Shown piece after piece: positions 1,635-49,108 of a stretch of DNA of 64,000 bases. Location: positions 15-64,014 of the forward strand of contig CAZNOF010000008.1 in the NCBI GenBank assembly GCA_964574595.1, read 5' to 3'. Position numbers and translations under genes: made by a program. The notes under the pieces were generated by a model. It was not told the origin of the DNA, did not search any database, and saw only the letters and a list, made by a program, of their open reading frames with translations. The DNA is from an uncultured Pseudomonadales bacterium (GTDB lineage: Bacteria > Patescibacteriota > Microgenomatia > UBA1400 > PJMF01). Position 1 is the first letter of the stretch. Each line of letters opens with the position of its first letter.

Positions 1635-3146
1635 CTATCTGAGTAATCCAATCACATCTGTGCTTTTAGCATACACCCTGACAAAGCCGAGTGGCGTGGC
1701 AGGCGTCAAATGATCTACTTCATGATACCCATATTGTTGTAATTGCGTTAGTACTTTATTTTGTGGGTCAGTTAAATCGCGCAAGTAATCGAACACTAAA
1801 ATGAAACGATACTTGGTGAGTTCTTTAGCATTTGGCAACTCTTCTTGACTGGATGTCGTTAACAAGCCGGTCGCATACGTAGGATACTTGCCATCGTCAT
1901 ACCACTGCCAGGGAGCAAATGGGGCAGGAAATGCAAAAGCAGCAGCTGAAAGTGGTCCAGGATACTTTTTCAAAATGGCAGCGTGCATCCCCTTCCAATC
2001 TTCTCTCTGGTACTTGGGATTTGAGAAGTAACTGATGGATGAGTAGAAATTGGTAATGAGTAAGGTGATAGCTAGGGTAATACCCACGAATCTCGTAGTG
2101 CGGGTATTTGAAAAGAAGCTTCTGCCGATTAACCAACTTAGGAGTAAGTAGAAGGCCGGCAGGCTGTATAAAACTCTCTTGGGTTGAAGTACCGGCACCA
2201 CAAAAGAAACCAGCCACGCCAATACGACTGGTACGACAAACCAAAATAGAATCAGAAAGACGGGCTTCATCTCAGCTGATTTTAGGCTTTTGAAATATGG
2301 CAACATCAGAAAAAGTGATGCTCCAACAATAATCAGTGTTACCAGTCCAAAGAAAAGTGACGTCTGTAGATCTAAAACACCAAAGCTAAACTTGCCAAAA
2401 ATGAGCAAAATAGACTTCAATTGATTAAAGCTGACCACATCCTGCCAACCTGGTAAATCTTGGCGAAGCGACTGACCGGCTTGTAGCTGCCCGAAGAAGG
2501 AAGGTATCCAAGGAAGAAATGTGAGTGAAGATGCTGTTACGGCTCCCAAAACTTCTTTCCGCCATTTTGGTTGAAAGCACAGAACGTAGCCAATTTGCGA
2601 TAAAAGTAAAAACGGATAGAGATAGGATGTGTAGAGTCCGGCTGCGGTGCTGATAAAAAACAGAATCAGTAATTTGATGTTCGTTTTTTTCTGATCAAAC
2701 AATAGAACAAGCGAATACCAACTCAGCGCTCCCAAGAAAGCTGGCATGGAGTATGGCCGTAGCTCTTGGGAATAAAAGACATGAAATGAGGAAGTACTGA
2801 GTAGAATCGCTGCCAGTACCCCGGTCTTTTTATCAAATAACTTTTCACCAATTTTATATGCCAGCCAGATTGTTAGTAATCCCGGTAAAACTGCTGCCCA
2901 GAGTCTGAGCCAAATTTCGCTTCTGGAAATCATCAACTCAAAGTGGACAAGAAGATGAAGTAAGGGTGGCTGAAAGTCATCTCTGATTTGAAGTTGCTGA
3001 GATAATGGTCGGGCGCTTTCTAAGGCTTGCGCTGCTTCATCTAGCCAAAAGGAACCTGTCAAAAGTGGAAGTCGCCAAAACGCGGCAAAAAGTATGACGA
3101 GTGAAATGAGCCAATTGCGTGAGACTAGTTGAGACAACTTCTTCAT
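1635..3146 (-). CDS. polytopic membrane glycosyltransferase, PMT_2/ArnT-like (GT39/GT83 superfamily, GT-C fold)
   Basis: 503 aa with >10 predicted TM helices. N-terminal periplasmic-loop motif FWLDEAAQALES (DE motif) is shared with six other paralogs in this window. Confidence 0.6.
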   Translation of the reverse strand: MKKLSQLVSRNWLISLVILFAAFWRLPLLTGSFWLDEAAQALESARPLSQQLQIRDDFQPPLLHLLVHFELMISRSEIWLRLWAAVLPGLLTIWLAYKIGEKLFDKKTGVLAAILLSTSSFHVFYSQELRPYSMPAFLGALSWYSLVLLFDQKKTNIKLLILFFISTAAGLYTSYLYPFLLLSQIGYVLCFQPKWRKEVLGAVTASSLTFLPWIPSFFGQLQAGQSLRQDLPGWQDVVSFNQLKSILLIFGKFSFGVLDLQTSLFFGLVTLIIVGASLFLMLPYFKSLKSAEMKPVFLILFWFVVPVVLAWLVSFVVPVLQPKRVLYSLPAFYLLLSWLIGRSFFSNTRTTRFVGITLAITLLITNFYSSISYFSNPKYQREDWKGMHAAILKKYPGPLSAAAFAFPAPFAPWQWYDDGKYPTYATGLLTTSSQEELPNAKELTKYRFILVFDYLRDLTDPQNKVLTQLQQYGYHEVDHLTPATPLGFVRVYAKSTDVIGLLR

Positions 3147-3186
3147 AGCGATCTATTATGGCATGATGCTACAATAATGAACACGT

Positions 3187-4206
3187 ATGAATACACTTCC
3201 TCAATTTGTTGCTGATTTTTTTCAAGGTAAAACCGTTTTAGTCACTGGTGGCGCTGGATTCATTGGCTCTCACTTGTGCGAAGCACTGGTCTCAGTCAAT
3301 GCCAACGTGATTGCCGTCGATAACTTTTTGACCGGACACATTGAAAATATTGATCATTTAAGAAGTCAATCGATTAAAAACTTTCGATTTATTCAAGGTG
3401 ATGTCTCACAGGAGCCCGAGAAATATTTGAAAATCTCCACAGTGCCTGATGTGGTTCTCCACTTTGCCTCCCCAGCTAGTCCTCCACGCTATCAGCAGTT
3501 CCCGATTGAGACATACTCAGTCAATAGTTTTGGCACGCATCATTTACTGCGTTACTTAATGGCCAGAAATCCTAAAGCTATTTTTCTCTATGCTAGTACT
3601 TCAGAAGTGTACGGTGATCCACAGGTCCATCCACAAGTAGAAACGTATTGGGGAAATGTGAATCCAAATGGCATTCGTTCTTGTTATGACGAAGCGAAGC
3701 GATTAGGTGAAACGATTTGTGGCGTGCATGCCAGAAACTTTCATTTCGATGCTCGAATTGTCCGCATTTTCAATACTTACGGTCCCCGAATGGATTTACA
3801 TGATGGTCGGGTAATTCCTAATTACATTGATGCAGCAATTCATCGCCAACCGCTAGCCATTTTTGGCGATGGCAAACAGACTCGATCTTATTGCTATGTC
3901 ACGGATTTGGTTGAAGGTATTTTGAGATATGCCGCGACACCAAACTTAGGTGGTCAAACAATTAACATGGGAAATCCTGGCGAGTTTACGATTGAAGAAA
4001 CTGTCCATGTCATGCAAGAAGTGATTGGTTCACTTGCACCACAGCTCAGTCCATTAACGACCGTCTCCCAACCACTCCCTAAAGACGATCCTGTTCGCCG
4101 AAAACCAGATATCACCAAAGCCAACCAACTTTTGGGCTGGCACCCGGGCATCTCATTTAAAGAAGGTTTAGCTGAAACAGTTCGTTATTACCTAGCTAGG
4201 CGCTAA
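3187..4206 (+). CDS. UDP-glucuronate decarboxylase family (UXS / ArnA C-domain-like extended SDR)
   Basis: VLVTGGAGFIGSHL Rossmann motif, YDEAKR (YxxxK) and RIFNTYGPRM signature shared by UDP-xylose synthase and the ArnA decarboxylase domain. Confidence 0.75.
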   Translation: MNTLPQFVADFFQGKTVLVTGGAGFIGSHLCEALVSVNANVIAVDNFLTGHIENIDHLRSQSIKNFRFIQGDVSQEPEKYLKISTVPDVVLHFASPASPPRYQQFPIETYSVNSFGTHHLLRYLMARNPKAIFLYASTSEVYGDPQVHPQVETYWGNVNPNGIRSCYDEAKRLGETICGVHARNFHFDARIVRIFNTYGPRMDLHDGRVIPNYIDAAIHRQPLAIFGDGKQTRSYCYVTDLVEGILRYAATPNLGGQTINMGNPGEFTIEETVHVMQEVIGSLAPQLSPLTTVSQPLPKDDPVRRKPDITKANQLLGWHPGISFKEGLAETVRYYLARR

Positions 4207-5509
4207 CTTTAGCTAGCTCATCTCGATTCCTTTTTCTCAATGCATATATCGCGAATCCGATACTAAAGAGCAGTAAGAAAAGTCGAGTTAACACTTTCAC
4301 CCAAACTGCTCCGGCTAATCCAAACAGAGGAATAAAGACAACGCCTCCAATCACCGTAATTAAAATCTGCCCAAGCCCGCTTAGTGAGAAGTATCTGGGG
4401 TGGTCCAAACTGTAAAACAAGGCGCTGAATGGTACGCTGGCGATCAGCAAGAAGCCTGACAACATCAGCCATGGCAAAAAGGGTTCTCCGGCAAAGTATT
4501 GACTTCCCACCGTAATTTGAAGGGATAAATGCGTCAGTGGATAGTAGACGATAAAGCCGAATACAGCGCCTAAAACAATCACCATACTTTTCTTCAGAAA
4601 CGAGTGAAGCTCCGTCAGCTTGTGGTATCGTGCCACTCTGGCATCTAGAACAGCGCTCAGTGAATATGCCACTAGAGTGACTGCTGTAGTCAGTTGTGCT
4701 AAGCCTCCGTAAATACCAGTTTCAAAAGGTGTAGTGTACTTTTGGACAAAGAGAATATCTAAATAATCAATAATCCCGACCGTCCCTACAAGAATAACCG
4801 AGTGCTTCATAATTCGCCATAGCTTCCCTTCTACTTCTGGATCATGGGTCAGTTTTAATACAGTCACTTGTTTTGGCAAGGCAGCAAAGAAAACTGGAAA
4901 TGACAGCAGTGGGACCGCATAAAAACAGTAGAAAAGGAAGGTTACTGAATCGATTCCCAAAAACTGAACGCTTAACGCGACTCCCAATTTCAACGCCGCT
5001 TGCGCTACGAGCATCAAGACACTGGCCGAAAAGATGTGAATCATCTGTAAAATGGTGGTGCCATATTCAAAAAGCATGATGACGCTGGCAAACAGAAAGC
5101 TGCCAAACAAAATAATTGGATGTGGAAAGTGAAGCAGATTTGCTAGCGGAATTGCCACGATAGCTCCGAGTAACGTTGAACTCATCATAATGAACATGTT
5201 CATTCGTGACGAAACGTGGATTAAGTGTGAGACCTTTTTCTCCCAGTTTGATTCATGAAAGTACGGGCCGGCTATTTTTTGGAGAGCCACATTCAGGCCA
5301 AGGCTCTGAATTTTGGTGATAATCACCATCAGTGAATATCCCACCGTAAACTCGGCAAACAAAACAGGACCAAGATGCCGAGAAATCATGATTAAGGCTA
5401 CGGCTGTAAAAACTCCCGCGAAGAGGCTGCCACCAACCAAGATCAAAGATTGCCGAAGCCCAGATGAAGAAAGTGCTAGTCGAATGAGTTTTTTCACTCG
5501 CTCCATCAT
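4196..5509 (-). CDS. Wzx-like oligosaccharide flippase (MOP superfamily polysaccharide biosynthesis protein)
   Basis: 437 aa, about 12-14 hydrophobic helices, no soluble domain. Overlaps the DegT gene by 4 bp (operon). Confidence 0.55.
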
Positions 5510-6621
5510 ATATGAGGAAAGAGGGTTTTGAGAATCTGAATTACTTTTGCTTGGTGAGCTTCCGACATGCCAGCATAAAGAGGCAAGCTGAGTTCTTGTC
5601 GGTGAATTTTTTCAGTAATTGGTAATTTGCCTTGTAAATGAGCCCATTCCGAGTAGGCCTCTTGGAAGTGCATTGGAACTGGATAGTGAATCATCGTTTC
5701 AATTCCCTGCTCCGCCAAACTCTTTTGCAACTCGTCCCTGTTTTCAACTAATATCGGGAAAATATGCCAAACGTGCTCGGTTTCTTCTTCAATCTGAGGC
5801 AGCTGCAAACCGTCTAAGTTGGCCAGCTCTGTAAGATACATATTGGCGAGTCGCCTACGCTCTGTATTCCATTGGTTTAAGTGAGGGAGTTTGGCACTGA
5901 GGACGGCGGCATGAATTTCGTCCAAACGAGAGTTCATTCCTTTGTATCTAAAAATGTACTTTTTCTGTTGACCATAGTTTGCCAGTTGGCGAACTTTATC
6001 TGCTAGTTCTTTACTGTTTGTAGTGACTGCGCCGGCATCGCCAAAAGCACCTAGATTTTTACCTGGGTAAAAACTATTAGCTGCAATGTCCCCAATTCCA
6101 CCAGTCACTCGTCCATCAACTCTGGCACCATGCGCCTGGGCATTATCTTCAACTACTTTAAGGTGGTACTTCTTGGCCAGCTTGAGAATTGGTTTCATAT
6201 GGGCTGGCTGCCCGTAAAGATGAACGACTAAAATGGCTTTGGTTTTAGAGGTGATCTGCTCCTCTATTCTCTCTGGGTCAATGTTGTAGGTGCCTGGCTT
6301 CGGTTCGACCAGAATTGGCACACCCCCCACAGATGAGACGGCAATCGCCGTAGCGATGTACGTATTTGCTGGAATGATGACTTCATCACCGGGTTCAATG
6401 CCAATTGCCAAGAGCGCGAGTTTGATTGCGTCTAAGCCATTCGCAACTCCCACACAGTACTTCACTCCAATATAGTCGGCATATGCCTTCTCAAATTGAG
6501 CCACTTCTTTTCCTAGTAAATACCAGCCACTGCTCAGTGTTCGCTGAATAGCCGCATCAATTTCTACTTGCAGATCTAGGTACTTCAGTTTTAAATCGAG
6601 ATACGGATAAAAGGTAGTCAT
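5506..6621 (-). CDS. DegT/DnrJ/EryC1/StrS-family PLP-dependent sugar aminotransferase (4-keto sugar transaminase)
   Basis: [31 protein letters not shown] and [15 protein letters not shown] (PLP-lysine context) are typical of ArnB/WecE/Per-type transaminases. Confidence 0.85.
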
Positions 6622-8122: not shown

Positions 8123-9061
8123 CTATTTTGACTCTTCAAAATAGTGAAGTAAGTAGTCAACGCTTTCCGCCAGACCTTTTTCAAATGGTATCTGGGCACT
8201 CCAACCGAGAATTTTGTGCGCTTTGGTGGCATCTGCTACTAGAACGAGCGGGTCACCTGGTCGATTTGGGAAATGTTTGACATTTGCTTTCTTGCCCATG
8301 ATCTTCTCAAGAGCAGAAATGACCTCAGCCACACTGGTTGGTGACTCCGCAGAAAGATTAAAGTAATGGTACTTGTTTGGTTGCTGATGCGCTAAATCAA
8401 TGGCATTTAAATGAGCGGCAACTACGTCCATGATATGAATGTAGTCTCGTTTGTGCTCACCTTGACCCCATACCGTTACTTCTTGATTCAGATGGATTTG
8501 TTTCACAAATCGAGGAATAACGTGTGTCTCTGGTTCATGAGCCTCTCCCGGTCCGTAAAGGTTGAAGTATCTGAGCGCGATGCCTGTTAATCCATAACTT
8601 GCTACATATGACGAAATCAGGGCTTCCATGGCCAATTTAGTCATGCCATATGGGTTGATGGGCATTGTCCGATCATCCTCTTGAATCGGTGTTGTCAATG
8701 GTTCTCCATACACAGCCGCGCTTGAGGAGAAAATGATCGTTTTAACACTATTCAGTCGCATGGCTTCCAGAACAGCAATACTACCTGATACGTTTGTGTC
8801 CACAAATCGCTGTGGGAATTTTACTGACTCACCAGCTTCAATCAGCGCGGCAAGATGAAACACGACCTCAGCATCTTTAATATGTTCTTTCATCGCTTCA
8901 ACATCTTTTATATCTGCTAGGACTGTTTCCACTTCGGGATTGTCTCGAAGGTCGATGTTTTTTACTTGAAAGCCTTTTTCTAGGAGTGTTCGGCAAAGAT
9001 GCTTTCCTAAAAATCCAGATCCCCCTGTAACAATTATTCTTGGTTTATCAGAGTAGTTCAT
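8123..9061 (-). CDS. NAD-dependent epimerase/dehydratase (GalE-like UDP-sugar 4-epimerase)
   Basis: IIVTGGSGFLGKHL Rossmann motif, YGMTK (YxxxK) catalytic motif, 312 aa. Confidence 0.7.
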   Translation of the reverse strand: MNYSDKPRIIVTGGSGFLGKHLCRTLLEKGFQVKNIDLRDNPEVETVLADIKDVEAMKEHIKDAEVVFHLAALIEAGESVKFPQRFVDTNVSGSIAVLEAMRLNSVKTIIFSSSAAVYGEPLTTPIQEDDRTMPINPYGMTKLAMEALISSYVASYGLTGIALRYFNLYGPGEAHEPETHVIPRFVKQIHLNQEVTVWGQGEHKRDYIHIMDVVAAHLNAIDLAHQQPNKYHYFNLSAESPTSVAEVISALEKIMGKKANVKHFPNRPGDPLVLVADATKAHKILGWSAQIPFEKGLAESVDYLLHYFEESK

Positions 9062-13680: not shown

Positions 13681-13682
13681 GT

Positions 13683-17044: not shown

Positions 17045-17054
17045 AGCATGAAGC

Positions 17055-18746: not shown

Positions 18747-18770
18747 CCTAATGGTTGTTATACTAAGTAT

Positions 18771-19220: not shown

Positions 19221-19221
19221 G

Positions 19222-22255: not shown

Positions 22256-22256
22256 A

Positions 22257-26691: not shown

Positions 26692-26702
26692 ATTTCGTCC
26701 GC

Positions 26703-27659: not shown

Positions 27660-27702
27660 AACAATAATTGTACATCACCTTGAAACAGAGTGCTGTTTGG
27701 GA

Positions 27703-28623
27703 TTACAGTCTAAATTTTCGTCTGATTTGCCAAGCTATTTTACTTATTCCACTTGACCTTGCCACATGCCGGTCGGCTATCCAGTAATTCAGGTCAGACT
27801 TGAACTGATCTAGCTCTTGAAGAACGACCGTTTCCTCTAGTTGGGCCACTGGAAAACCGCTTCGTTCCCACACCTTCAAGTAAGTGGCAACTTGATACAT
27901 TGACTGCAAAAGTGATAATCCCACACCGTGAATCCCCTCTTTTATCCCATCCTCTTGAAAAAGCCGTCTGAAAAACTCATCACTGAACAGATGAAGTACT
28001 TTTGCTGAGTTGAATGAATCAGGTGATTTTTCAAGTTCTGCCTCAATGGATGTATACCTATTTAAGCGATCAATATACTGGTCTACGTGTTGAAAGTTGT
28101 GATGCAAAATAGTGGCATTTTGTTCAACTGGGAGGTAACCTGTCTTGCCATCAATCAATGGCGTACTGTGAATTTTGTCCGACCAACTAACTTTCCCTTT
28201 TTTAAATAGTCTCAGTTGGAAATCTGGCCACCAGCCAGTGCCAGTCATTTTTCTGCCAAAAATTTCATTTCTCCTAGCGACAAAAAAAGCTACTTCAGAG
28301 ACTTTGGTGTTTTCGACAACACTTTTAATTTCTTGAGCAAGTTCCGGTGTGACCTCTTCATCGGAATCTAAAATGAAAACCCAATCTGCTGTAGCTTTAC
28401 TAATTGCCAAATTTCTTGCTGGTTCGACGTAGTTACTGTCAGTGCCTGTTTCAAAAAACTCAACATTAAACTTTTTGGCAATCTGCTTTGTTTTGTCAGA
28501 ACTCTTCATGTCCATGATGACAATCTGGCTGGCAAAACTTTCGACACTTTTTAAAGCATCTGCCAAAGTTCCTTCAGAATTTTTGGTATTTATGACAACA
28601 CTCAGTGGTAACTTATCATTCAT
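27703..28623 (-). CDS. glycosyltransferase family 2
   Basis: LSVVINTKNSEGTLADAL...IMDMKSSDKT...ILDSDEE (DxD); 306 aa. Confidence 0.75.
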   Translation of the reverse strand: MNDKLPLSVVINTKNSEGTLADALKSVESFASQIVIMDMKSSDKTKQIAKKFNVEFFETGTDSNYVEPARNLAISKATADWVFILDSDEEVTPELAQEIKSVVENTKVSEVAFFVARRNEIFGRKMTGTGWWPDFQLRLFKKGKVSWSDKIHSTPLIDGKTGYLPVEQNATILHHNFQHVDQYIDRLNRYTSIEAELEKSPDSFNSAKVLHLFSDEFFRRLFQEDGIKEGIHGVGLSLLQSMYQVATYLKVWERSGFPVAQLEETVVLQELDQFKSDLNYWIADRHVARSSGISKIAWQIRRKFRL

Positions 28624-35045: not shown

Positions 35046-36176
35046 ATGGCCAAACGCAAAGCAGCAAAATCTGTCAAGATACTTTTGCCACCAACTGAAC
35101 CAGTTCCAGGATTAGTCGCACTTTTCATACGATCGATGGCTTTATCTATTCTCTTTGCCTTCATTCTCATCACCTTTTCAGGTTTGCTCGTTCTTGGTTA
35201 TCTCTTGCACAAAAGTACCCAGTTCACAACTCCTGCTCAAGCAAGCTTAGTAGAGCTAGTTCAAATAGCTAAAACAGGCTGGCAAACTGTTCCGCAGCAA
35301 GATAAAGGACGAATTAACTTCCTGGTGTTAGGGAGTGATGAGTTGCCAAATCGAGATCACCAAACAGTCCTAACAGACACTATGTTGATTGCTTCACTGA
35401 ATCTGCAAAATGGTCAGGTTGGCCTCTACTCTTTTCCTAGAGACATCTGGATAACGACCTATCAAGAAAAAATCAATAAGTTATACGAATCAGGTAAGCA
35501 GCTCACACCTAGCAAACCTGAGCAACTACCTACTAAAGTAGTTGAGGATCTTTCAGGAATTCCGATTCACCACACAGTGATTATGAAATTAGATACCCTG
35601 TCAAAGTTGGTGGATTTAGTTGGTGGAGTTGATGTGATTGTGAAGGAAAGTTTTACAGACCCACTGTTTCCGAGAAGTGATGTAGACGTCACAGTAGTTC
35701 ACGATCCCAAGCTGCTTTATGAGACCGTCTCATTTGCTTCTGGATCTGCCCATATGAGTGGAAGCGAGGTGCTGAAGTATGTCCGAAGCCGTCATGCCGT
35801 GGGTGAACAAGGTTCAGACAATGCCCGAGGCAGCAGACAGCAGGACGTCATTCTGGCGCTCGTCCAGAAGTTAAAAGATCAAACGTTTTGGTACGACTTG
35901 CATCGTGATGGCCTCATCTATCACTTTTATATGACTGAGTTCAATCAATATTTGCCAGTGACCGAAGCAATCGGAATTGGCAAATTATTACGACCACATT
36001 TGAGCGGGATCAGCTTCTCTGAAGGGACACCTGGAGTCTACCCGACAGACCAACAAGGCACGATTTATCACCCAGAAGGTAGTGCTGCCAAGTATTTTGG
36101 GGCTTGGGTATACGAAATCAAAGATCAACAAAAGTTTAAGGATGCTATCAGAACTTCATTAGGATATGGTCAATAA
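35046..36176 (+). CDS. LytR-CpsA-Psr (LCP) family cell-envelope polymer ligase
   Basis: N-terminal TM anchor, then NFLVLGSDELPNRDHQTVLTDTMLIASLN...YSFPRDIWI, typical of the LCP domain. Confidence 0.75.
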   Translation: MAKRKAAKSVKILLPPTEPVPGLVALFIRSMALSILFAFILITFSGLLVLGYLLHKSTQFTTPAQASLVELVQIAKTGWQTVPQQDKGRINFLVLGSDELPNRDHQTVLTDTMLIASLNLQNGQVGLYSFPRDIWITTYQEKINKLYESGKQLTPSKPEQLPTKVVEDLSGIPIHHTVIMKLDTLSKLVDLVGGVDVIVKESFTDPLFPRSDVDVTVVHDPKLLYETVSFASGSAHMSGSEVLKYVRSRHAVGEQGSDNARGSRQQDVILALVQKLKDQTFWYDLHRDGLIYHFYMTEFNQYLPVTEAIGIGKLLRPHLSGISFSEGTPGVYPTDQQGTIYHPEGSAAKYFGAWVYEIKDQQKFKDAIRTSLGYGQ

Positions 36177-36432: not shown

Positions 36433-37449
36433 ATGTCAAAATTGCTTGTGACCGGAGGCGCCGGTTTTATTGGATCAAACTTTGTTCACTATTGGTTGAA
36501 AAATCATCCTGAGGATCAAGTAGTGAATTTCGACAAATTAACTTACGCCGGAAATCTAGAAAACCTTCGCGATATTGAGACCAATCCGCAATATTCGTTT
36601 ATCAAAGGTGACATTACTGATCCAGCTGCCGTAGACGCTGCTATGGTTGGAATTGATATGGTGGTTCACTTTGCCGCGGAAACCCATGTTGATAGATCCA
36701 TCTTAGGACCAGGTGTCTTCCTACAAACAAATGTGATCGGCACACAAGTTTTACTTGATGCAGCTCTCAAATATAAAGTGAAACGATTCCATCACATATC
36801 TACTGATGAAGTCTTCGGCTCCCTCGAGCTTGGCTCCGCAAGTAAGTTTACTGAGCACACGCCCTACGACCCACGAAGTCCTTACTCAGCTAGTAAAGCC
36901 GGTTCCGATCATCTCGTCAGAGCTTATGGCGAAACCTTTAGCCTTCCATTTACCATTACCAACTGCTCGAACAACTATGGCGAGTTCATGTTTCCAGAAA
37001 AATTATTTGCCTTAGCTATCACCAACATTATTGAAGGCAAAAATGTACCAGTTTATGGAGACGGATTAAATGTCCGAGACTGGTTGTATGTTCAAGATCA
37101 CTGTTCCGCAATTGAAGCTGTTTTATTAAATGGCAAAGTTGGTGAGACATACACTGTTGGCGGCTTAGTCAAAGACTACAGTAACTTGGAAGTAGTTAAG
37201 CTGATGTTGAAATTAATGGGCAAATCAGAAGAAATGATTGAGTTTGTAAAGGATAGAGCTGGCCACGATCGTCGTTACGCTGTAGACTGGACAAAGATAA
37301 ATCAAGAACTCAATTGGTCCCCTTCTGTTACATTAGAAGAAGGTCTGCAAAAAACAATTGAATGGTATCAAACTCATGAGGCCTGGTGGAGACCTCTAAA
37401 AGAAAATGCTAAAGACTTTTTTAAACAAAATTACCAAAAGAACAGTTAA
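36433..37449 (+). CDS. rfbB: dTDP-glucose 4,6-dehydratase
   Basis: LLVTGGAGFIGSNFVHYWL, YSASKAGSDHLVRAY (YxxxK), TNCSNNYGEFMFPEKL; 338 aa. Confidence 0.9.
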   Translation: MSKLLVTGGAGFIGSNFVHYWLKNHPEDQVVNFDKLTYAGNLENLRDIETNPQYSFIKGDITDPAAVDAAMVGIDMVVHFAAETHVDRSILGPGVFLQTNVIGTQVLLDAALKYKVKRFHHISTDEVFGSLELGSASKFTEHTPYDPRSPYSASKAGSDHLVRAYGETFSLPFTITNCSNNYGEFMFPEKLFALAITNIIEGKNVPVYGDGLNVRDWLYVQDHCSAIEAVLLNGKVGETYTVGGLVKDYSNLEVVKLMLKLMGKSEEMIEFVKDRAGHDRRYAVDWTKINQELNWSPSVTLEEGLQKTIEWYQTHEAWWRPLKENAKDFFKQNYQKNS

Positions 37450-37456
37450 GGACACT

Positions 37457-37990
37457 ATGCAAGTTCATCAGTCATACACGGAAAAAGTAAGTACTCAGTC
37501 ATACAAATCTGTTCCCAAAATTGAAGGTGTTGAACTCGTTAATTTACCTTGGCATAGTGATGATGGTGGCAACTTCACTGAAATTTTCAGACTTTCATCT
37601 GGAAGTATTCAAGGCTTGAGTGAACCATTTGAAACGAAACAGGTCAGTATGTCTTTGTTAGTCCCTGGGACCGTCAAAGCATATCACTTGCATTACAAGC
37701 AAGATGATTTATGGTACGTACCTCCATTTCAACGACTCCTCGTCAATTTACACGATGTCCGCGAAGGTTCTCCAACTTTTGATCAGCATCAAAAACTCCT
37801 ATTGGGTGGAGGCAAAAACGTTCTTTTGAGAATTCCTCGTGGTGTTGCTCACGGTATTGCCAATATTTATCAACACGACATGATGATGTTTTATGCGACT
37901 ACAGAACAGTTTAATCCAGATGAACCAGATGAACATCGTTTGCCATGGGATATCTTTGGTACCGAGGTCTGGGAATTAAACAAAGGATAA
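37457..37990 (+). CDS. rfbC: dTDP-4-dehydrorhamnose 3,5-epimerase (cupin)
   Basis: About 177 aa after trimming the overlapping N-terminal extension. KAYHLHYKQDDLWYVPPF...GVAHGIANI resembles RmlC. Sits directly between rfbB and rfbD. Confidence 0.7.
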   Translation: MQVHQSYTEKVSTQSYKSVPKIEGVELVNLPWHSDDGGNFTEIFRLSSGSIQGLSEPFETKQVSMSLLVPGTVKAYHLHYKQDDLWYVPPFQRLLVNLHDVREGSPTFDQHQKLLLGGGKNVLLRIPRGVAHGIANIYQHDMMMFYATTEQFNPDEPDEHRLPWDIFGTEVWELNKG

Positions 37991-37991
37991 T

Positions 37992-38861
37992 ATGACTGTC
38001 ATTGGCACCGGCTTAAATGGTTTAGTCGGCTCAAAGCTGGTTCAAACCTTTCATAAGCAGTACGCCTTCTTAAATATTGATCGCCTCGATGAGAAAACAC
38101 CTATCGACATTACTAAACTTGATCAAGTAACCGAATTTATCGGTAAATCTGATGCGGAATGCATCGTTCACTTTGCCGCGTTCACAGATGTCACAAAAGC
38201 TTGGGAGCAAAAAGGTGATCTAAATGGTCCAGCCTATCAAGTAAATGTAATTGGAACGCGAAACATTGTTGCTGCCGCAAATGCCTCAAATAAACACGTG
38301 ATTCATATCTCCACAGCCTATGTGTTCGATGGCAATAATCCGGAAATGTATACAGAAGAAGACGTTGTCCATCCAATCGAATGGTATGGGGAAACCAAAG
38401 CAATGGCAGAAGATGAAGTAACAAACAAAGCAAAAAGTTGGACTATCTTGCGCATTGATCAGCCATTCCGTTCTGATCCATTTCCAAAAGTCGATCTAGC
38501 GCATCGGATTTTATCGGGACTCCAAAACGACACGCTCTACCCTCAGTTTTCCGATCACTTTATTGGCCCAACATTTATCGATGATTTTGTAAGAGTGATT
38601 GAATGGGTCATCAGAACGAAAAACACTGGCTTGTTTCACGCTTCATCTGGAGAAAAATGGTCAGACTTTGCCTTTGCCAATTTGCTGAATGAACAACTGC
38701 ACCTCGGCAAAACCGTTAAAGAAGGTCATTTGGCTGAGTACCTGAAGACATTGAGTAGACCGTATCAAAAAAATACAGCTCTAGATTGCACGAAATTACG
38801 GTCTAAACTTGATTTTGATTTGAGCACCATTCAACAAGCCGTTTCCAAGCTTCAACAGTAA
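37992..38861 (+). CDS. rfbD: dTDP-4-dehydrorhamnose reductase
   Basis: 289-aa SDR-like protein with IGTGLNGLVGSKL and a YGETKA (YxxxK) motif. Follows rfbC by 1 nt. Confidence 0.7.
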   Translation: MTVIGTGLNGLVGSKLVQTFHKQYAFLNIDRLDEKTPIDITKLDQVTEFIGKSDAECIVHFAAFTDVTKAWEQKGDLNGPAYQVNVIGTRNIVAAANASNKHVIHISTAYVFDGNNPEMYTEEDVVHPIEWYGETKAMAEDEVTNKAKSWTILRIDQPFRSDPFPKVDLAHRILSGLQNDTLYPQFSDHFIGPTFIDDFVRVIEWVIRTKNTGLFHASSGEKWSDFAFANLLNEQLHLGKTVKEGHLAEYLKTLSRPYQKNTALDCTKLRSKLDFDLSTIQQAVSKLQQ

Positions 38862-39573: not shown

Positions 39574-40899
39574 ATGAACATCTGTATCATCGGAACAGGA
39601 TTTGTCGGTGTTGTTTCAGCCGCAGTCTACGCCTCTTTTGGAAACAAAGTCATTGGTCTCGACATAGACCCACAAAAAATCGAAAAATTAAAACATGGTG
39701 AAGTCCCCTTTTTTGAACCGGGTCTGACCGAACTTCTCCTAGAGCAGCAAAAAACTGGGAATCTCCACTTTACGACTGATTACAAAGAAGCCATTTCTGA
39801 TTCAGAAATTATTTTTGTGGCCGTTGGAACTCCATCTGCACCTTCTGGAGAAGCCGATCTCAAGTACGTCTTCATGACTGCCGATTCCATGGCGCCTCAT
39901 TTAAAAGATCAAAGCATTATCGTTATTAAATCAACAGTGCCACCGGGTACTTTGACAGCCTACGCCGAAAGAATCAAAGCCAAGACAACGGTCCCATTCT
40001 TTATGGCCTCTGTTCCAGAGTTTTTGCGTGAAGGCACGGCAGTTAACGATACCCTCCATCCAGACAGAGTAGTCATTGGTGCAAATGAGCCTGAAGTTGC
40101 AGCTAAACTAACTGCGTTACACGAGCCACTCCAAACAGAAATTTTGGTGATGTCACCAGAATCCGCCCAGATGGCCAAGTACTCTGCTAATGCCTACTTA
40201 GCCACTAGAATTACCTTCATTAATCAAATTGCCGACTTATGCGAGAAAAACGGGGCTGATGTTCAAGAAGTTATTGAAGCAATTGGCTTCGACAAGCGAA
40301 TCGGACCCCAATACTGGTACCCAGGAATGGGATATGGCGGCTCCTGCTTCCCTAAGGACGTTAAAGAACTAGCTGCCTACTCAAAGTCCGTTGGTGAAAC
40401 CAGCAATTTACTTATCAAGATCAATGAAATTAACGAGAACCGAATTGAAAAGTTATTGAATCAATATGAAAGTGCTGTAGGCGGATGGTCAGGTAAGAAA
40501 GTCGCTGTATTAGGTCTTTCATTTAAGCCAAATACCAACGATATGCGCGAAGCACCAAGCGTGAAAGTTGTTCCACTGTTGCTGAGTAAAGGTGCCAACG
40601 TAGCTGGCTTTGACCCTAAAGCCGAGTGGCCAGCCAATGGTGATGTAGCCTTTTATACGGCCAGCCCTATCACTGCTGCCGCTGCGTCGAGAGCAAGTTT
40701 TACTCAAACCCAAACTATTGATGAGACGATTAAAGATGCAGACGTGATTATTGTCTTAATCGAGTGGCCAGAAATAACTTCATTCGATTTTGCTGCTTCA
40801 AAAGCAACCAAACCTCAGTGGTTTATTGACACTCGAGATCAATTCGAACCAAAACAGATTGAATCTGCAGGCTACACATATATTGGAGTTGGGAGATAA
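39574..40899 (+). CDS. ugd: UDP-glucose 6-dehydrogenase
   Basis: MNICIIGTGFVGVVSAAVYA, GGSCFPKD catalytic cysteine motif; 441 aa. Confidence 0.9.
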   Translation: MNICIIGTGFVGVVSAAVYASFGNKVIGLDIDPQKIEKLKHGEVPFFEPGLTELLLEQQKTGNLHFTTDYKEAISDSEIIFVAVGTPSAPSGEADLKYVFMTADSMAPHLKDQSIIVIKSTVPPGTLTAYAERIKAKTTVPFFMASVPEFLREGTAVNDTLHPDRVVIGANEPEVAAKLTALHEPLQTEILVMSPESAQMAKYSANAYLATRITFINQIADLCEKNGADVQEVIEAIGFDKRIGPQYWYPGMGYGGSCFPKDVKELAAYSKSVGETSNLLIKINEINENRIEKLLNQYESAVGGWSGKKVAVLGLSFKPNTNDMREAPSVKVVPLLLSKGANVAGFDPKAEWPANGDVAFYTASPITAAAASRASFTQTQTIDETIKDADVIIVLIEWPEITSFDFAASKATKPQWFIDTRDQFEPKQIESAGYTYIGVGR

Positions 40900-40903
40900 C
40901 AAC

Positions 40904-41854
40904 ATGAAAGATCAACCAATTCTCATTACTGGTGGCACTGGTTTTGCAGGTCAACACTTAATCAAGGCTTTGATTGATGCAGGCTATTCTAATATTCACT
41001 CAACTCATTATGGCCCACAGCCAATTCCAACATTTTCGATTCCTGTTACATTTCACCAACTGAATCTGACTGATCCAGAGGCCACTCAGCAGCTTTTTGC
41101 CGAGCTAAAACCGGCTCAGGTTTATCACTTGGCTTCATTTGCAGCGGTTGGGAAAAGTTTTGAGAGAGCAGCAAGTTTGTTACAAAACAACATCACCCTC
41201 CAGCTGAATGTTCTCAATGCGGCTGTCAAATCGAGCCCGGAAAGTAGGATTTTAATCATTGGCAGTGCTGAAGAGTACGGACGCACAAACTTAAAAGCTG
41301 GTGAATCAATCGATGAGAGCTTCCCGCTGAATCCGGCCGAGCCTTACGGAGTTTCCAAAGTAGCCCAAGATTTACTTGCTCAAACATACTTTTATGCCTT
41401 TAAATTACCAGTGATTCGAGTACGTCCTTTCAATCATATTGGTGAAGGTCAAACGGCCGACTTCGTAGTTGCAGCTTTCGCAAGTCAAATTGCCGCCATT
41501 GAAAAAGGACAACAGACCACTCTAAAAGTTGGTGAATTATCTGCCGTCCGTGATTTCACAGATGTGAAGGACATGGTTAAAGCCTATATTTTGCTGATGG
41601 AAAAAGGTGTGGCCGGTGAAGTCTATAATATCGGAAGTGGCCAAGGTCACTCAGTGCAAGAAGTGCTTGATATCTTGCTTTCTTTATCTGAGAAAGAGAT
41701 CACGGTTGAAACAGATCCTAGCCGAATGCGCCCATCCGATATACCATATTTCACAGCGAATGCCAGTAAAATGATGAAGTTGGGATGGAAACCGCAGATC
41801 CCATTAAAAGAAACATTACAAAGAGTCTTGAATGACTGGAGAAACCGCATATGA
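40904..41854 (+). CDS. NAD-dependent epimerase/dehydratase, probably GDP-4-keto-6-deoxy-D-mannose reductase (Rmd-like)
   Basis: Start moved to ATG 40904 ([19 protein letters not shown]) after RBS GGGAGA. PYGVSK (YxxxK). Immediately upstream of gmd with a 4-bp overlap. Confidence 0.55.
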
Positions 41855-42828
41855 AAAAAGCATTTATTACAGGTATTACTGGCCAAGATGGATCTTACTT
41901 AGCTGAACTTCTATTAGAAAAAGGCTACAAAGTCTACGGTTTGAATCGCCGCACCAGTACTCAAAATTTTGAGCGCATTCAACACATTATTCACAACCCA
42001 AATATTGAGTTAATTTCTGGTGACTTGCTAGATCAACACTCCTTAACAATTGCTTTAAAAGACATTCAACCAGATGAAATTTATAATTTAGCTGCACAGT
42101 CATTTGTCCAAACAAGTTGGGCTCAACCAGTTTTAACTGGTGAGTTCACAGCTTTGGGTGTGACTCGAGTTTTAGAAGCGATGCGATTTGCCGCTCCAAA
42201 AGCTAAATTCTACCAAGCTAGTTCTTCAGAAATGTTTGGAAAGGTTCAAGAAGTCCCTCAGGTTGAGACGACTCCTTTCTACCCTCGTTCACCATACGGT
42301 GTCGCCAAAGCCTATGGCCACTGGATTACTGTCAACTATCGAGAATCATTTGATTTATTCGCTGTTTCAGGCATGCTCTTTAACCATGAGTCTCCTCGTC
42401 GAGGACTTGAGTTTGTAACTCGAAAGATTGCCAATGCAGTTGCCAGAGTAAAATTAGGTAAACAAGAGTATGTCGAACTAGGCAACCTTGATTCAAAGCG
42501 AGACTGGGGCTACGCAAAAGACTACGTCGAGGCCATGTGGTTAATGCTTCAACAAGATGAACCGGACGATTACGTAATTGCCACAGGCGAGACACACTCC
42601 GTTCAGGAATTCTTGGAATTAAGTTGCAAGGTGGCTGGCATTGCCGATTGGAAAACTGCCTACAAGCATAATCCAAAATTTGACCGCCCAGCCGAAGTTG
42701 ATCTGTTAATTGGAAACCCAGCAAAAGCAAAACAGAAACTTGGTTGGGAACCAAAAGTGGGATTTGCAGAATTAGTCGAGATCATGGTCAAAGCTGAGCT
42801 CGAGTTAGAAAGCAATTCGAATTCATGA
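41851..42828 (+). CDS. gmd: GDP-mannose 4,6-dehydratase
   Basis: [36 protein letters not shown]...YGVAKAY...[11 protein letters not shown] are canonical Gmd motifs. Confidence 0.9.
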
Positions 42829-44000
42829 AAACCGGCATTGTGATTATTCCCACTTATAACGAGCGGGAAAACATTCAAAAAGTCGTCCCTATTTTGGAAG
42901 ACGTTTTTAAAAAGGTCTCTCACTGGAATTTGGGTATTTTGGTTGTCGACGATACCTCTCCTGACAAAACGTATGATGTCGTCGCAGACATGCAGCAGAA
43001 GTACAAAAACCTGCATTTATTCGTGAATAAGAAAAAAAGCGGTTTGGGTGGCGCCTATCTCAAAGGGATGGATGAAGCGTTTCATCGTCTTCATGCGGAT
43101 GTAGTGTTTGAGTTTGATGCCGACCTATCCCATGACCCTCAAAAAATTCCTGATTTCCTTAAGAAAATTGACTTAGGGTATGACATGGTGCTTGGCTCAC
43201 GGTATATTCCCGGCGGAGGGATTCCTCAGGATTGGGGCTGGCACCGAAAACTTCTCAGTGTCTGGGGAAATCTCTTCATTAATATCGTTTTAGCTGACTT
43301 CAGAATCCGAGATTGGACCGGCGGCTACCGAGCCATCACTAAGCCAGTCTATGATGCAGTCATTTCAGAGATGCAATCAGAACGATTTACTGGGTATACT
43401 TTTCAGATAGGGTTTTTGCATAAAGCCGTCAAAAATGGATTTAAGATATCAGAAGTTCCTTTTCACTTCGTGGATCGAACTGTCGGCGAGTCGAAAATGG
43501 GCATGGATTACATCAAAAATAGCTTGATCTTCATCCTAAAGGTTAGGCTAAAGGACATTATGACAAATCGTTTGTTTAAGTTTATTGTGGTCGGCGGAGT
43601 GGGTGCGGCAATTCAATTTATTGCTCTCTTTTTGTTCTCCAAAATTGCTACTTTTTTAATTGCAGATTTCTTTGCCATTGAAATTGCTATTTTGTCAAAC
43701 TTTTTAATCAATAACGCCTGGACCTTTTCTGATCGAAAACTCACCTTGGCTCAATATCCTGTTCAATTCTTTAAATTTAATGTTGCCTCAGCCGGCTCTG
43801 TCATTATTCAACTCATTGTGGCATTTATTGGTAAAACCCTCTTCGGAACTGGCGACTTGTTTATGATCCCAGTCGTTCAAAAAGGATTTAGTTTGAAGTA
43901 CATCTATGCTGGCGTCGGGATTTTACTTGGTATGATCTGGAACTTCTTTGCCTATAACACGTTCATTTGGCGAAAGTCCAAGTCCAAGTCCAAGTCATAA
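42825..44000 (+). CDS. GT2 polyprenyl-phosphate glycosyltransferase (DPM1/ArnC/GtrB-like) fused to a C-terminal GtrA-like 4-TM domain
   Basis: [13 protein letters not shown]...[10 protein letters not shown]...FDADLSH (GT2-A fold), then [22 protein letters not shown]...[10 protein letters not shown] (GtrA-like). Ends in KSKSKSKS. Confidence 0.75.
43974..43997 (+). repeat. hexanucleotide tandem repeat (aagtcc)x3 plus aagtca, encoding a C-terminal KSKSKSKS tail
   Basis: Read directly from the sequence at the 3' end of CDS 42825-44000. Confidence 0.9.
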
Positions 44001-44003
44001 ACT

Positions 44004-45539: not shown

Positions 45540-45542
45540 TTT

Positions 45543-47551: not shown

Positions 47552-47554
47552 ACT

Positions 47555-49108
47555 GTGTTCAAAAAGTATCTCGTACCCATCTCATTGCTTCTGCTCTATC
47601 TCGTAACGCATTTATGGCAGTTAACTTTGTTACCAGTATTTGCTGATGAAAGTATCTATATTCGGTGGGCTCAGTTGGTCATGGATAACTGGCAGCAATA
47701 TGCTTTTTTTCCTCTCAATGATGGCAAAACACCTCTTTTCATCTGGAGTTTAATCCCGTTTCAATCACTATTTGCTGATCAATTATTTGCTGCGAGATTT
47801 GTTGCCGTTCTAGTTGGCTTTCTGCAGCTCTTTGTAGTCAAAGAAATTGTCAAAGAATTAGGAGGGAGAAAAAAAGCTCAGTGGTTGAGCATGTTGTTGG
47901 TGGCAATACTGCCATTTTGGTACATCTATCATCGCTTTGCCTTGATGGACGGGATGATGACATTATTTCTGTCATTGGTCATCTTGACTACACTCAAAAC
48001 TGTTCACATTCAGAAGCCTACATTAGCAAAGTTGATGCCAATGGCGCTATTAAGTGGTCTATTCTTGGGACTTGGAATCTGGACAAAAATACCGGCCGTC
48101 TTTATCGTTCCTGCACTCCCATTTTTTGTATTCTTACCTGAAAAAACAAATCGTCAGAAAGTATTTTTCCAGCAATCAAGTATCGGTCTCAGCGTTTTCA
48201 TCGGCTTGGTGCTTTTCGTTACCTTAAGAATCAGTCCTGCTTTTGGACAGCTTTTTCATCGCAGTTCTGATTTTTCATTTCCAATGGGCGATGTCTTACT
48301 ACATGGTCAGTGGCAACAAACACTCGCCAGTGTACCCACCTACATGAATTACTTCTTCACTTATTTGACCTGGCCAGTTCTTGTGCTGGCTCTAGCTGGC
48401 GTCTTCTCAACCACAAACAGAAGAAAAACCTTCGTTATGCTGGCCGTAGCAGTTGCTTTTTCAGGGTATTTCGTCTTGTTTGGACGAGTAGTCTATTCAA
48501 GATATTTTCTGCCAGTTGCCATACCGTTTACGGTCATGGCGAGTATTAATGCTCAAGCGCTGTTTGATATCTATTTCACCAGACAAAAATCATTACTCAG
48601 AAAATCTTTGGCGGCAGTCATCGTCACTGTTTTCTTGGGTAGCGTTATCTCTATTTCGGCACATACAATTTTTCCGGCATTAACAGATCCATCGACAATT
48701 CCCTTCGTCAGTTCAGATACCGAACAATACTTAACAACCTGGTCATCCGGAATAGGTATTCCAGAGACGGTATCGTATATCCAGGAACAAAGTCAGAACC
48801 ATACCATTGCTGTGGCTACAGAGGGTCGATTTGGAACCCTACCTGATGGTTTGCTGCTGTATTTCCACGATCGAAATGTAAACAATATCTATATTGAAGG
48901 TACCGGCCAATATCCAGTCAAAACGATTCCTGATTTCTTTGCTGAACGAGCCAAGAACTTTGATCAATCAATTCTTGTTGTCAATTCAGATAGAATGCAG
49001 TTACCATTGCTGCCCTCTGCCCTCATTCATCAATACTGTCGCCCATTTCATGCCTCTTGTCTACAAATTTGGGATATTACCTCACAAGTAAAACAACTAG
49101 CCAAGTAA
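47555..49108 (+). CDS. PMT_2/ArnT-like membrane glycosyltransferase (GT39/GT83 superfamily)
   Basis: 517 aa polytopic protein. LPVFADESIYIRWAQLV (DE loop motif). Confidence 0.6.
   Translation: MFKKYLVPISLLLLYLVTHLWQLTLLPVFADESIYIRWAQLVMDNWQQYAFFPLNDGKTPLFIWSLIPFQSLFADQLFAARFVAVLVGFLQLFVVKEIVKELGGRKKAQWLSMLLVAILPFWYIYHRFALMDGMMTLFLSLVILTTLKTVHIQKPTLAKLMPMALLSGLFLGLGIWTKIPAVFIVPALPFFVFLPEKTNRQKVFFQQSSIGLSVFIGLVLFVTLRISPAFGQLFHRSSDFSFPMGDVLLHGQWQQTLASVPTYMNYFFTYLTWPVLVLALAGVFSTTNRRKTFVMLAVAVAFSGYFVLFGRVVYSRYFLPVAIPFTVMASINAQALFDIYFTRQKSLLRKSLAAVIVTVFLGSVISISAHTIFPALTDPSTIPFVSSDTEQYLTTWSSGIGIPETVSYIQEQSQNHTIAVATEGRFGTLPDGLLLYFHDRNVNNIYIEGTGQYPVKTIPDFFAERAKNFDQSILVVNSDRMQLPLLPSALIHQYCRPFHASCLQIWDITSQVKQLAK

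Follow-up and report, generated by a model that had tools for sequence, protein, structure and literature searches.

The 64,000-nucleotide stretch of DNA considered here (the window; positions 15 to 64,014 of the forward strand of contig CAZNOF010000008.1, GenBank assembly GCA_964574595.1) carries, between its positions 1635 and 49108, an island of genes rich in polytopic membrane proteins of the glycosyltransferase class GT-C. The window has a GC content of 42% and a high coding density; 53 of its open reading frames (ORFs) of at least 100 amino acids (aa) were treated as genes, and the Pfam scan covered 48 of them. Hydropathy identifies 17 polytopic proteins within the island, 15 GT-C candidates, each with 5-12 hydropathy segments, one clear flippase and one protein that is faintly flippase-like; the 15 GT-C-type genes add up to 23,496 bp and take up 37% of the window and one half of the distance from 1635 to 49108. 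A first-pass annotation of the same DNA had arrived at this tally (7 + 3 + 2 + 3) and had read it as an extreme expansion, built around seven PMT_2/ArnT-like paralogs with an Asp-Glu (DE) loop motif. The tally was reproduced and the seven ORFs were all found where they had been placed, all polytopic; it is the kinship of these genes and their history that look different on closer analysis. Genes are named below by their lower coordinate and collected in Table 1.

How many families do these proteins represent? All-against-all BLASTP and phmmer comparisons of the 15 sequences yield three clusters and a set of singletons. Cluster I consists of 13683, 15287, 17055, 20438 and 22257 (paralogs Ia to Ie, in this order), which are 24-34% identical pairwise (E 1e-15 to 1e-52) and form, as originally described, one tandem array on the minus strand (13683-23903), whose sole interruption is a pair of plus-strand genes (18771-20496). 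Cluster II recovers the earlier "family A" (E of the order of 1e-114 and 1e-12): 12133 and 44004 are 38% identical (E 1e-114), and 6680 joins them through its N-terminal ~240 aa, with phmmer E-values of 8e-13 against 44004 and 1.8e-5 against 12133. Cluster III recovers "family B", with 29157 and 33194 linked at E 5e-27 (of the order of 1e-27). The proteins 1635, 47555, 9074, 19222 and 46307 have no strong pairwise links, in agreement with the listing of the last three as singletons. The "seven paralogs", by contrast, do not hold together: only the five members of cluster I are true paralogs, 47555 is linked weakly to Ic (E 1.6e-5), and 1635 has no significant pairwise link by either method; thus, the seven are a motif class, not one paralog family. 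Nor is likeness to PMT_2 (gathering score 26.1 bits) confined to them or common to them all: 1635, 17055 and 47555 score above the threshold, and so does 44004, which lies outside the seven, whereas 15287 stays below it (18.1 bits) and 13683, 20438 and 22257 lack a match at E <= 0.01. Within the array, Ic alone passes. Matches under the threshold also include 12133 (21.3 bits), 33194 (22.6) and 22257 (12.7), with none for 20438 and 13683; the relation of 12133, 15287, 33194, 22257, 13683 and 20438 to PMT_2 is at the profile level only.

Together, several lines of evidence tie these clusters and singletons to GT-C enzymes. Profile-profile alignment with hhalign links cluster I to cluster II (97.4%), to cluster III (90.3%), to the PMT protein 47555 (91.0%) and to the 46307 family (78%), and cluster II to cluster III (89.9%). 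The thresholds for the other informative Pfam models are 22.7 bits for PMT, which among the 15 proteins matches 47555 alone, 26.4 for PTPS_related and 30 for GtrII, which Ia approaches (28.0 bits) while matching PMT_2 not at all; 33194 also has a weak, sub-threshold match to GT-C_AftD (18.8 bits). Where a protein has no match of its own, its homologs are informative: several of the best 120 of 1006 homologs of Id carry PF13231, with the JGI name "ArnT-like", and 9074, which has no Pfam match even at E <= 10 and is a relative of PIG-V (PF04188) rather than a demonstrated member, has 9060 relatives at E <= 0.001 and 50 analyzed homologs that match Mannosyl_trans2 (PIG-V; 21, best E 8.6e-10), PMT_2 (10) or GT87 (2). 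In the case of 46307, existing database annotation assigns PF26314 (MptA_B_family) to the identical protein and, with a single exception, to the 120 proteins listed; NCBIfam models of the MptB type do not match it, and NCBIfam gives only sub-threshold, uninformative matches to the GT-C proteins. The AlphaFold2 (AF2) model of 46307 (pLDDT 90.7) is, like that of 19222, an all-helical bundle. The weakest cases are 46307 and 6680, the latter placed in GT-C solely through its paralogy to 44004. Because of these Pfam and PF26314 matches, the PIG-V-like homologs of 9074, the fold of 19222 and the profile-profile links, the assignment of the 15 proteins as GT-C-type glycosyltransferases, not transporters, is supported by sequence and structure models. 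The HMM matches include no transporter family, the outcome that had been named earlier as one that would refute the reading: every informative match is to a GT-C family, and transporter identity was rejected.

Table 1. Proposed assignments of genes in the island (window coordinates) and their basis
Feature	Position	Strand	Basis
GT-C, PMT_2 singleton, 503 aa	1635..3146	-	PMT_2 42.8 bits; LDEA, DE at residues 35-36
GT-C, divergent cluster II member, 478 aa	6680..8116	+	Paralogy, no own Pfam match; motif NDMGRD
GT-C, PIG-V-like, 412 aa	9074..10312	-	Motifs FDEL and NFDGVHY; homolog matches
GT-C, cluster II member IIa, 530 aa	12133..13725	-	PMT_2 21.3 bits, below threshold; motif ADQARD
GT-C, cluster I paralog Ia, 535 aa	13683..15290	-	Paralogy E 1e-15 to 1e-23; DE (PDEA)
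GT-C, cluster I paralog Ib, 585 aa	15287..17044	-	E 4e-52 to 20438; DE (WDEV)
GT-C, cluster I paralog Ic, 563 aa	17055..18746	-	PMT_2 47.9 bits; DE (NDEA)
GT-C-fold protein N19, 424 aa	19222..20496	+	AF2 and Foldseek; 59-bp overlap with 3' end of 20438-22255 (-)
GT-C, cluster I paralog Id, 605 aa	20438..22255	-	Homologs, no own Pfam match; EE (WEEA)
GT-C, cluster I paralog Ie, 548 aa	22257..23903	-	E 8e-43 to 20438; DE (WDEA)
GT-C, cluster III member IIIa, PTPS_related, 605 aa	29157..30974	+	PF10131 45.5 bits
GT-C, cluster III member IIIb, PTPS_related, 587 aa	33194..34957	-	PF10131 30.2 bits
GT-C, cluster II member IIb, PMT_2, 511 aa	44004..45539	+	PMT_2 34.9 bits; motif GDQGRD
GT-C, MptA_B_family, 414 aa	46307..47551	+	PF26314; invariant D110 in SHD(I/V)FNY
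GT-C, PMT-type, 517 aa	47555..49108	+	PMT 48.7 bits, PMT_2 47.3 bits; DE (ADES) at residues 30-31
GT2 fused to GtrA domain	42825..44000	+	Glycos_transf_2 88 bits; GtrA_DPMS_TM 56.8 bits (gathering score 26.1)
GT2, Dpm1/Ppm1/GtrB-like, 255 aa	45543..46310	+	Glycos_transf_2 79.6 bits
Five cytoplasmic glycosyltransferases (GT2, GT4, GT2, GT2, GT2)	23907..28623	-	Pfam Glycos_transf_2, Glycos_transf_1
Wzx/MOP-type flippase, 501 aa	31696..33201	-	Polysacc_synt_3 142.3 bits
12-TM protein, possible second MOP/Wzx-type flippase (weak)	4196..5509	-	Polysacc_synt E 0.26
LytR-CpsA-Psr (LCP) glycopolymer ligase	35046..36176	+	PF03816 100.3 bits (threshold 24.6)
dTDP-rhamnose genes RmlB, RmlC-like, RmlD-like	36433..38861	+	RmlB 472.5 bits, equivalog cut-off 365
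UDP-glucose 6-dehydrogenase type, epimerase/dehydratase, GDP-mannose 4,6-dehydratase	39574..42828	+	NCBIfam, Pfam
Short-chain dehydrogenase/reductase (SDR)-type nucleotide-sugar epimerase/dehydratase	3187..4206	+	Epimerase 170.5 bits, GDP_Man_Dehyd 169.1 bits
DegT-family sugar aminotransferase	5506..6621	-	Pfam DegT 393 bits
GalE-like epimerase, last gene of minus-strand run	8123..9061	-	Epimerase 203.6 bits

The acidic motif is a second common trait. An acidic pair is found 10-15 residues past the first hydrophobic segment in all seven of the proteins for which it had been reported, but the pair is DE in only six, with EE in Id. Among 292 cluster I orthologs from about 80 other genomes, DE is present in every ortholog of Ia (58/58), Ib (51/51) and Ie (67/67) and in 100% of those of Ic, while Id orthologs have EE (78/90) or DE (11/90); FSR..(F/W)E, a further motif, is conserved to the same degree throughout the five cluster I clades. 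The acidic motif of the array is not a matter of chance. Counterparts occur outside the array: cluster II shares a D-x-x-R-D motif, the 9074 family has an invariant D61 in the loop after the first transmembrane helix (TM1), and the 46307 family has its invariant Asp in loop 3, behind two apparent extra N-terminal helices. In PimE, ALG6, ArnT and PglB, catalysis depends on an aspartate that acts as the base from the tip of the first outer juxtamembrane helix (PMC12041525); by homology, these conserved acidic residues are likely catalytic bases. Topology was judged from hydropathy and the positive-inside rule, a crude approach; the Lys/Arg (K/R) bias places the N-terminus inside in 1635 (16 vs 9) and 47555 (18 vs 8), as well as in 44004, 12133, 33194, 46307 and 19222, and does so at the family level for the 46307 and 19222 families (16.9 vs 8.8 in the latter); in these proteins the first loop would accordingly face outward.

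The 19222 protein (N19) deserves separate mention. Neither 19222 nor any listed homolog (129 found, all of them of the Patescibacteria type) has a Pfam or NCBIfam match, and the assignment comes from structure modeling: in a Foldseek search with its AF2 model (pLDDT 94.9, pTM 0.93), PimE is found at E 2e-5 with TM-scores of 0.56/0.61, PimE, PIG-M (GPI mannosyltransferase I) and ALG3 span TM-scores of 0.54-0.66, and PIG-U, ArnT, Emb, Pmt4 and ALG6 are also matched. Loop 1 of the family contains an invariant Glu, E57, in WYEYPP (E57-Y-P-P); in PimE, the catalytic Asp is D58, at the tip of the first juxtamembrane helix (PMC12041525). N19 thus matches GT87/PimE-like enzymes in fold alone, with no sequence-model match and with Glu, not Asp, in loop 1, and its model suggests a GT-C family that lacks an existing sequence model. 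The N19 gene adjoins Id in 9 of the 48 loci described below; homologs of both are reported from contigs of matching lengths (4752, 4184, 4741 and 6774 bp), and in loci of the Beckwithbacteria type N19 sits between Ie and Id, co-directional with them.

When did the array arise? In a locus survey that took one genome per species, 226 loci had a cluster I relative; the best 80 of the 226 were analyzed, and gene order and content were counted in the 48 loci of at least 20 kb. The homologs belong to Microgenomates-group Patescibacteria, in species labeled Pacebacteria, Woesebacteria, Beckwithbacteria and Microgenomatus. In 28 of the 48 loci, strong orthologs of Ie, Id, Ib and Ia stand in that order on one strand, and 38 have at least three of the four; Wzx is upstream of the cassette in 27, and a strong ortholog of the PIG-V-like 9074 is in its flanks in 20. 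Strong orthologs of Ic were found in 4 loci only. In a neighbor-joining tree rooted on PMT, Ia, Ib, Id and Ie each fall into an ortholog clade (F1 0.90, 1.00, 0.95 and 0.98, respectively) that holds the paralog from the window, and median identity to orthologs is 40-48% vs 20-29% between paralogs. Because orthologs form clades and resemble each other more than paralogs do, the duplications are older than the divergence of these lineages; a phylogeny, suggested in the first-pass annotation as a way to date them, therefore puts them before that divergence, not in the recent past. By sequence comparison, the cassette, in the order Ie-Id-[N19]-[Ic]-Ib-Ia (brackets mark the variable positions), is ancient. 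In loci of at least 20 kb, the median number of GT-C-like ORFs is 7 per 21 kb (range 3-8), against 8 in the equivalent slice of the window, so "extreme expansion" does not describe a trait of this genome: the array is an ancient fixed-order cassette, and the window is typical of its clade. The many acceptor or donor specificities ascribed to the paralogs fare better in part. The paralogs do appear functionally distinct, but in fixed, conserved roles and not as a diversifying repertoire; since gene order is conserved, the motifs are intact and each paralog has an ortholog lineage of its own, they may be taken as distinct, fixed linkage-forming steps.

The nearest relative found, GCA_040384245.1, has the whole island in the same order (465197-511505 of its contig), with about 62-67% protein identity. 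Many records of metagenome-assembled genomes with the cassette bear titles such as "uncultured Pseudomonadales bacterium", "Methylococcaceae", "Limisphaerales" and "Vitreimonas sp."; the taxon labels of those records are probably wrong. In the window, the minus-strand genes from 34957 down to 8123 abut or overlap, with almost no intergenic space. A terminator-like hairpin (8084-8060, minus strand), a 9-bp stem followed by TTTTTT, lies 39 bp past the last gene of this ~27-kb run; the remaining terminator-like matches in the region are within coding sequence.

What would supply these enzymes? Two GT2 proteins, 42825 and its paralog 45543, look like polyprenyl-phosphate-sugar synthases from their sequences: in NCBIfam both come closest to PgfS, ArnC and dolichyl-P-hexose transferase, and 42825 also to AglJ, each match being under its cut-off. 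Both genes lie just upstream of a GT-C gene, 42825 ending 4 bp before 44004 and 45543 overlapping 46307 by 4 bp; the adjacent 42825-44000 (GT2 + GtrA) and 44004-45539 (PMT_2) make up a three-component set, which is kept in GCA_040384245.1. Three such synthases had been counted earlier, of which these two Dpm1/GtrB/ArnC-like proteins remain; a third was rejected because the other five GT2 proteins fall into two separate, unrelated groups without Dpm1/GtrB-type matches. GT4 genes number three. The block of five cytoplasmic glycosyltransferase genes, also retained in GCA_040384245.1, is directly upstream of the array, and one of its GT2 proteins (26703-27659) weakly matches rhamnosyltransferase and GlfT1 models. 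A minus-strand ORF (28646-29254) stands between this block and the PTPS_related gene; its product of 202 aa has a single hydrophobic segment, at the N-terminus, and matches no family, and GCA_040384245.1 has an ORF of the same length in the equivalent place. As a candidate priming transferase of the PglC type it was rejected, having no Bac_transf match even at E <= 10. The LCP ligase proposed at the outset was confirmed, as was one of two proposed flippases, Wzx; the other, 4196-5509, is faintly flippase-like, a protein of 12 hydropathy segments with short loops and a strong K/R asymmetry (26 inside vs 3 outside), but with no PDB or NCBIfam match.

Nucleotide-sugar genes complete the island. 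RmlC and RmlD are assigned from Pfam (RmlD, at 141 bits, is under its NCBIfam cut-off); the NDP-sugar dehydrogenase scores 425.6 bits, and Gmd scores 437.1 bits, above its cut-off of 415. SDR-type epimerase/dehydratases are found besides at 3187-4206, 8123-9061 and 40790-41854. The best NCBIfam matches of the first are dTDP-glucose 4,6-dehydratase and TviC and that of the second is GalE, as those of the DegT-family protein (5506-6621) are PseC, WecE and ArnB, all under cut-offs. Across 3187-6621, 39574-40899 and 42825-46310, the gene set bears a resemblance to the Ugd-ArnA-ArnB-ArnC-ArnT pathway for a lipid-linked aminopentose: an Ugd-type dehydrogenase, an SDR protein like the ArnA decarboxylase (3187-4206), DegT (a sub-threshold ArnB match), an ArnC-like GT2 and ArnT-like GT-C proteins, with matches that are all under equivalog cut-offs.

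Taken as a whole, the region is probably an envelope-glycan biosynthesis island of Microgenomates-type Patescibacteria (the candidate phyla radiation) that, judging from its genes, works in two stages. On the cytoplasmic side, island enzymes would supply dTDP-rhamnose, derivatives of GDP-mannose and UDP-glucuronate, and an amino sugar; GT2 and GT4 enzymes would build a lipid-linked precursor for export by Wzx, and the two Dpm1/GtrB-like GT2 proteins, one of them GtrA-fused, would load single sugars onto polyprenyl phosphate. On the outside, the 15 GT-C enzymes may transfer lipid-linked sugars onto the growing glycan and/or proteins, elongating or branching it, with the acidic motif of the first outer loop as the presumed catalytic base; the LCP enzyme would then ligate the finished polymer to peptidoglycan. 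The neighboring genes are consistent with the idea, already present in the first-pass annotation, that lipid-linked sugars are made inside and transferred outside. By analogy, the array points to fixed assembly of a conserved envelope structure, closer to the line of mycobacterial arabinogalactan and lipomannan than to a variable antigen. A bolder version, which we put forward tentatively and would not bet on, is that the product is a clade-defining Microgenomates envelope heteropolysaccharide, anchored to peptidoglycan or lipid and polymerized for the most part outside the membrane by a fixed series of 4-6 anciently diverged GT-C enzymes, including the 19222 type: an independent counterpart of mycobacterial arabinogalactan/lipomannan.

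Several observations sit uneasily with an envelope-glycan island. Two lipid-sugar synthases would have to serve 15 GT-C enzymes, and NCBIfam matches are mostly far under equivalog cut-offs. No priming phosphoglycosyltransferase, RmlA or Wzy was recognized among the scanned ORFs of the window (models for Bac_transf, Glycos_transf_4 and Wzy/O-antigen ligase have no match in the 48 scanned of the 53); the priming transferase and the Wzy polymerase may be elsewhere in the genome. For 46307, Foldseek finds nothing significant in the PDB; PimE and ALG3 are the most plausible of the structures returned (probability about 0.86, TM-score about 0.38). Finally, the 12-segment parse of cluster I gives a K/R bias of 10.8 vs 18.6, which would leave the N-terminus on the outer side and the DE loop in the cytoplasm. 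Cluster I has 11 transmembrane helices, with the N-terminus in and the C-terminus out, only if segment 80-96, the weakest of the 12 (mean hydropathy 1.39 in the family-averaged profile), does not span the membrane and belongs to the first outer loop; read in this way, the proteins have seven helices ahead of a long, conserved loop at 277-359 and end in an outer C-terminal domain of 135 residues, the canonical GT-C layout. Could the polytopic proteins, then, be transporters, other membrane proteins or dead scaffolds, in which the DE motif is coincidental? The lack of an above-threshold Pfam match in 8 of the 15 proteins (6680, 9074, 12133, 13683, 15287, 19222, 20438 and 22257) and the ambiguity of the crude topology analysis would fit, and so would the lack of solved structures matched by sequence: such searches return none for the cluster I and 46307-family profiles or for 47555 and 17055 as single proteins, and weak, unrelated matches for the 9074 profile and 4196 (best E 0.069). 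This is nonetheless very hard to credit: no transporter family is matched, the informative matches are all to PMT, PMT_2, PTPS_related, GtrII, AftD, PIG-V, GT87 or MptA_B, profile-profile links reach 90-97%, the fold of 19222 resembles PimE, PIG-M and ALG3, and the acidic motif is kept across about 290 orthologs.

What the enzymes act on, and how variable their product is, are separate questions. The acceptor could be a protein and not a polysaccharide; the GT-C enzymes would then chiefly glycosylate S-layer protein, pilins or secreted proteins, in the manner of PMT. 47555 passes the PMT threshold (48.7 vs 22.7 bits) and follows a Dpm1/Ppm1-like GT2 gene and an MptA/B-family gene, reminiscent of the actinobacterial Ppm1-Pmt pairing; the best NCBIfam match of both GT2 proteins is PgfS, named for a streptococcal glycosyltransferase; and the array proteins lie within the PMT_2 neighborhood. 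Set against these points, Wzx, the LCP ligase, the rhamnose genes and seven cytoplasmic GT2/GT4 genes make up a polysaccharide-type set and no acceptor protein is encoded nearby, so that protein glycosylation seems unlikely as the chief role, yet it is compatible with an envelope-glycan island, in which proteins may be the acceptors for part of the 15 enzymes. A recent expansion, specific to the lineage, that would diversify surface decoration, with changeable specificities as in serotype-converting Gtr systems or variable O-antigen and capsule loci, is quite improbable. The tandem arrangement of the paralogs would suit it, as would the sequence diversity of GT-C proteins in three-component systems (PMC9574508) and the presence of variable positions in the cassette (strong Ic orthologs in 4 loci, N19 in 9 of 48). 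However, paralogs that are 20-29% identical, with orthologs at 40-48% across many species, do not look recent; the gene order is shared in 28 of 48 loci, the catalytic motifs are kept in every clade and the whole 46-kb island is retained in the nearest relative. A recent origin was rejected on the ortholog clades and the gene order shared across species, which largely refute this alternative for the core array.

Other features of the region are less easily placed. A Bcp/AhpC peroxiredoxin gene (18771-19220, plus strand) and the housekeeping tRNA methyltransferase gene trmD (38873-39523, minus strand) lie inside the island, in the same positions in GCA_040384245.1. An OmpR-type response regulator gene (49111-49836, minus strand), with no adjacent histidine kinase, is convergent with the PMT gene and comes right after it; this neighbor is kept in GCA_040384245.1 and on one short contig (L083). 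It is followed by a tRNA-Gln gene (49841-49912) and then by about 1.9 kb of small ORFs without family matches; GC is higher (0.458) in the 2-kb bin 50001-52000. In GCA_040384245.1, the interval from the response regulator to a P-type ATPase instead holds a 315-aa ORF, an epimerase, an Acyl_transf_3 protein and a 79-aa ORF, and 49841-51797 looks like a variable spot. The ORF starts of 12133-13725, 37406-37990, 30971-31825 and 40790-41854 overlap upstream genes by 13-130 bp, and the extra N-terminal stretches of about 30-45 aa lack homology; the true start codons of these four ORFs are probably further downstream.

Why would such an organism spend 23.5 kb on 15 predicted outward-facing glycosyltransferases? 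The genomes of Patescibacteria are tiny, and the cells rely on others; at a genome size of 0.6-1.2 Mb, the range of relatives' large contigs, the investment would be about 2-4%. The core set keeps its order and sequence in many species of the clade, which argues for an important envelope glycan or glycoprotein layer, the surface that faces hosts and phages; should a clade-defining heteropolysaccharide exist in genomes of about 1 Mb or less, it would be a candidate surface for host attachment. The function of the island is one that we infer from sequence, and the finding is descriptive in nature. Enzymes of this class, and the way they work in general, are well known; the particular families are uncharacterized members of it, and the conserved cassette is apparently undescribed: no description of a multi-GT-C cassette was found in the searchable full-text literature, a coverage that leaves out most subscription journals, and a review of Patescibacteria makes no mention of glycans (PMC11665869). 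The analysis provides ortholog groups Ia, Ib, Id and Ie, conserved motifs that are predicted to be catalytic and a GT-C family without a sequence model.

How does the island compare with known systems? Its PMT-type protein recalls yeast Pmt1-Pmt2 and actinobacterial Pmt (PF02366): 47555 scores above threshold for both PMT and PMT_2, carries the DE pair behind its first helix and is encoded close to a Dpm1/Ppm1-like GT2 gene. Unlike those enzymes, it has no detected MIR domain and no sequence match to solved Pmt structures, and it is the only one of the 15 proteins to reach the PMT model.

A broader likeness is to multi-component systems, such as GtrA/GtrB/GtrC of Shigella and Salmonella phages, CsdAB-CflA of Lactococcus, GacIJKL of Streptococcus pyogenes and ArnC-ArnT. 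Extracytoplasmic glycosylation by sets of three or four components, with an LCP step, has been described (PMC9574508), as have GT-C enzymes with a C-terminal carbohydrate-binding domain (PMC11127046). The shared elements are a GT2 predicted to charge polyprenyl phosphate with a sugar, a GtrA-type domain (in this case part of the GT2 protein) or a Wzx-type flippase, and a polytopic GT-C protein encoded right downstream (42825-44000 before 44004-45539; 45543-46310 before 46307-47551 and 47555-49108); the presence of an LCP ligase and rhamnose genes in one island also recalls loci for the rhamnose-rich wall polysaccharides of Gram-positive bacteria (PMC9574508). The differences are equally clear: known systems pair synthase and GT-C one to one, with up to three GT-C per flippase in Lactococcus, whereas 15 GT-C proteins accompany two synthases here; their GT-C genes are accessory and variable, whereas those of the island form an ancient, order-conserved cassette; and all scores here to named equivalogs are under cut-offs.

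The envelope of mycobacteria and corynebacteria offers a third comparison, in which many different GT-C enzymes act in series outside on polyprenyl-phosphate sugars. M. tuberculosis has roughly 15-20 GT-C genes in 4.4 Mb. The mycobacterial set includes Ppm1, PimE, MptA/MptB, Pmt, the Emb/Aft arabinosyltransferases, GlfT1/2, a rhamnose linker and Lcp1; its possible counterparts here are the Ppm1-like GT2 45543, the PimE-like fold of 19222, the MptA_B_family protein 46307, the PMT protein 47555, the GT2 26703 with its weak GlfT1/rhamnosyltransferase likeness, RmlBCD and LCP. The bacterium that carries the island differs in being monoderm-like, in its tiny genome and in the lack of a mycolate context; no mycobacterial ortholog corresponds to the five-paralog PMT_2-like array, and Emb/Aft-type Pfam models have no match above threshold, AftD being touched only by 33194. 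Yet in both lineages the set is conserved clade-wide, as a core feature of the envelope.

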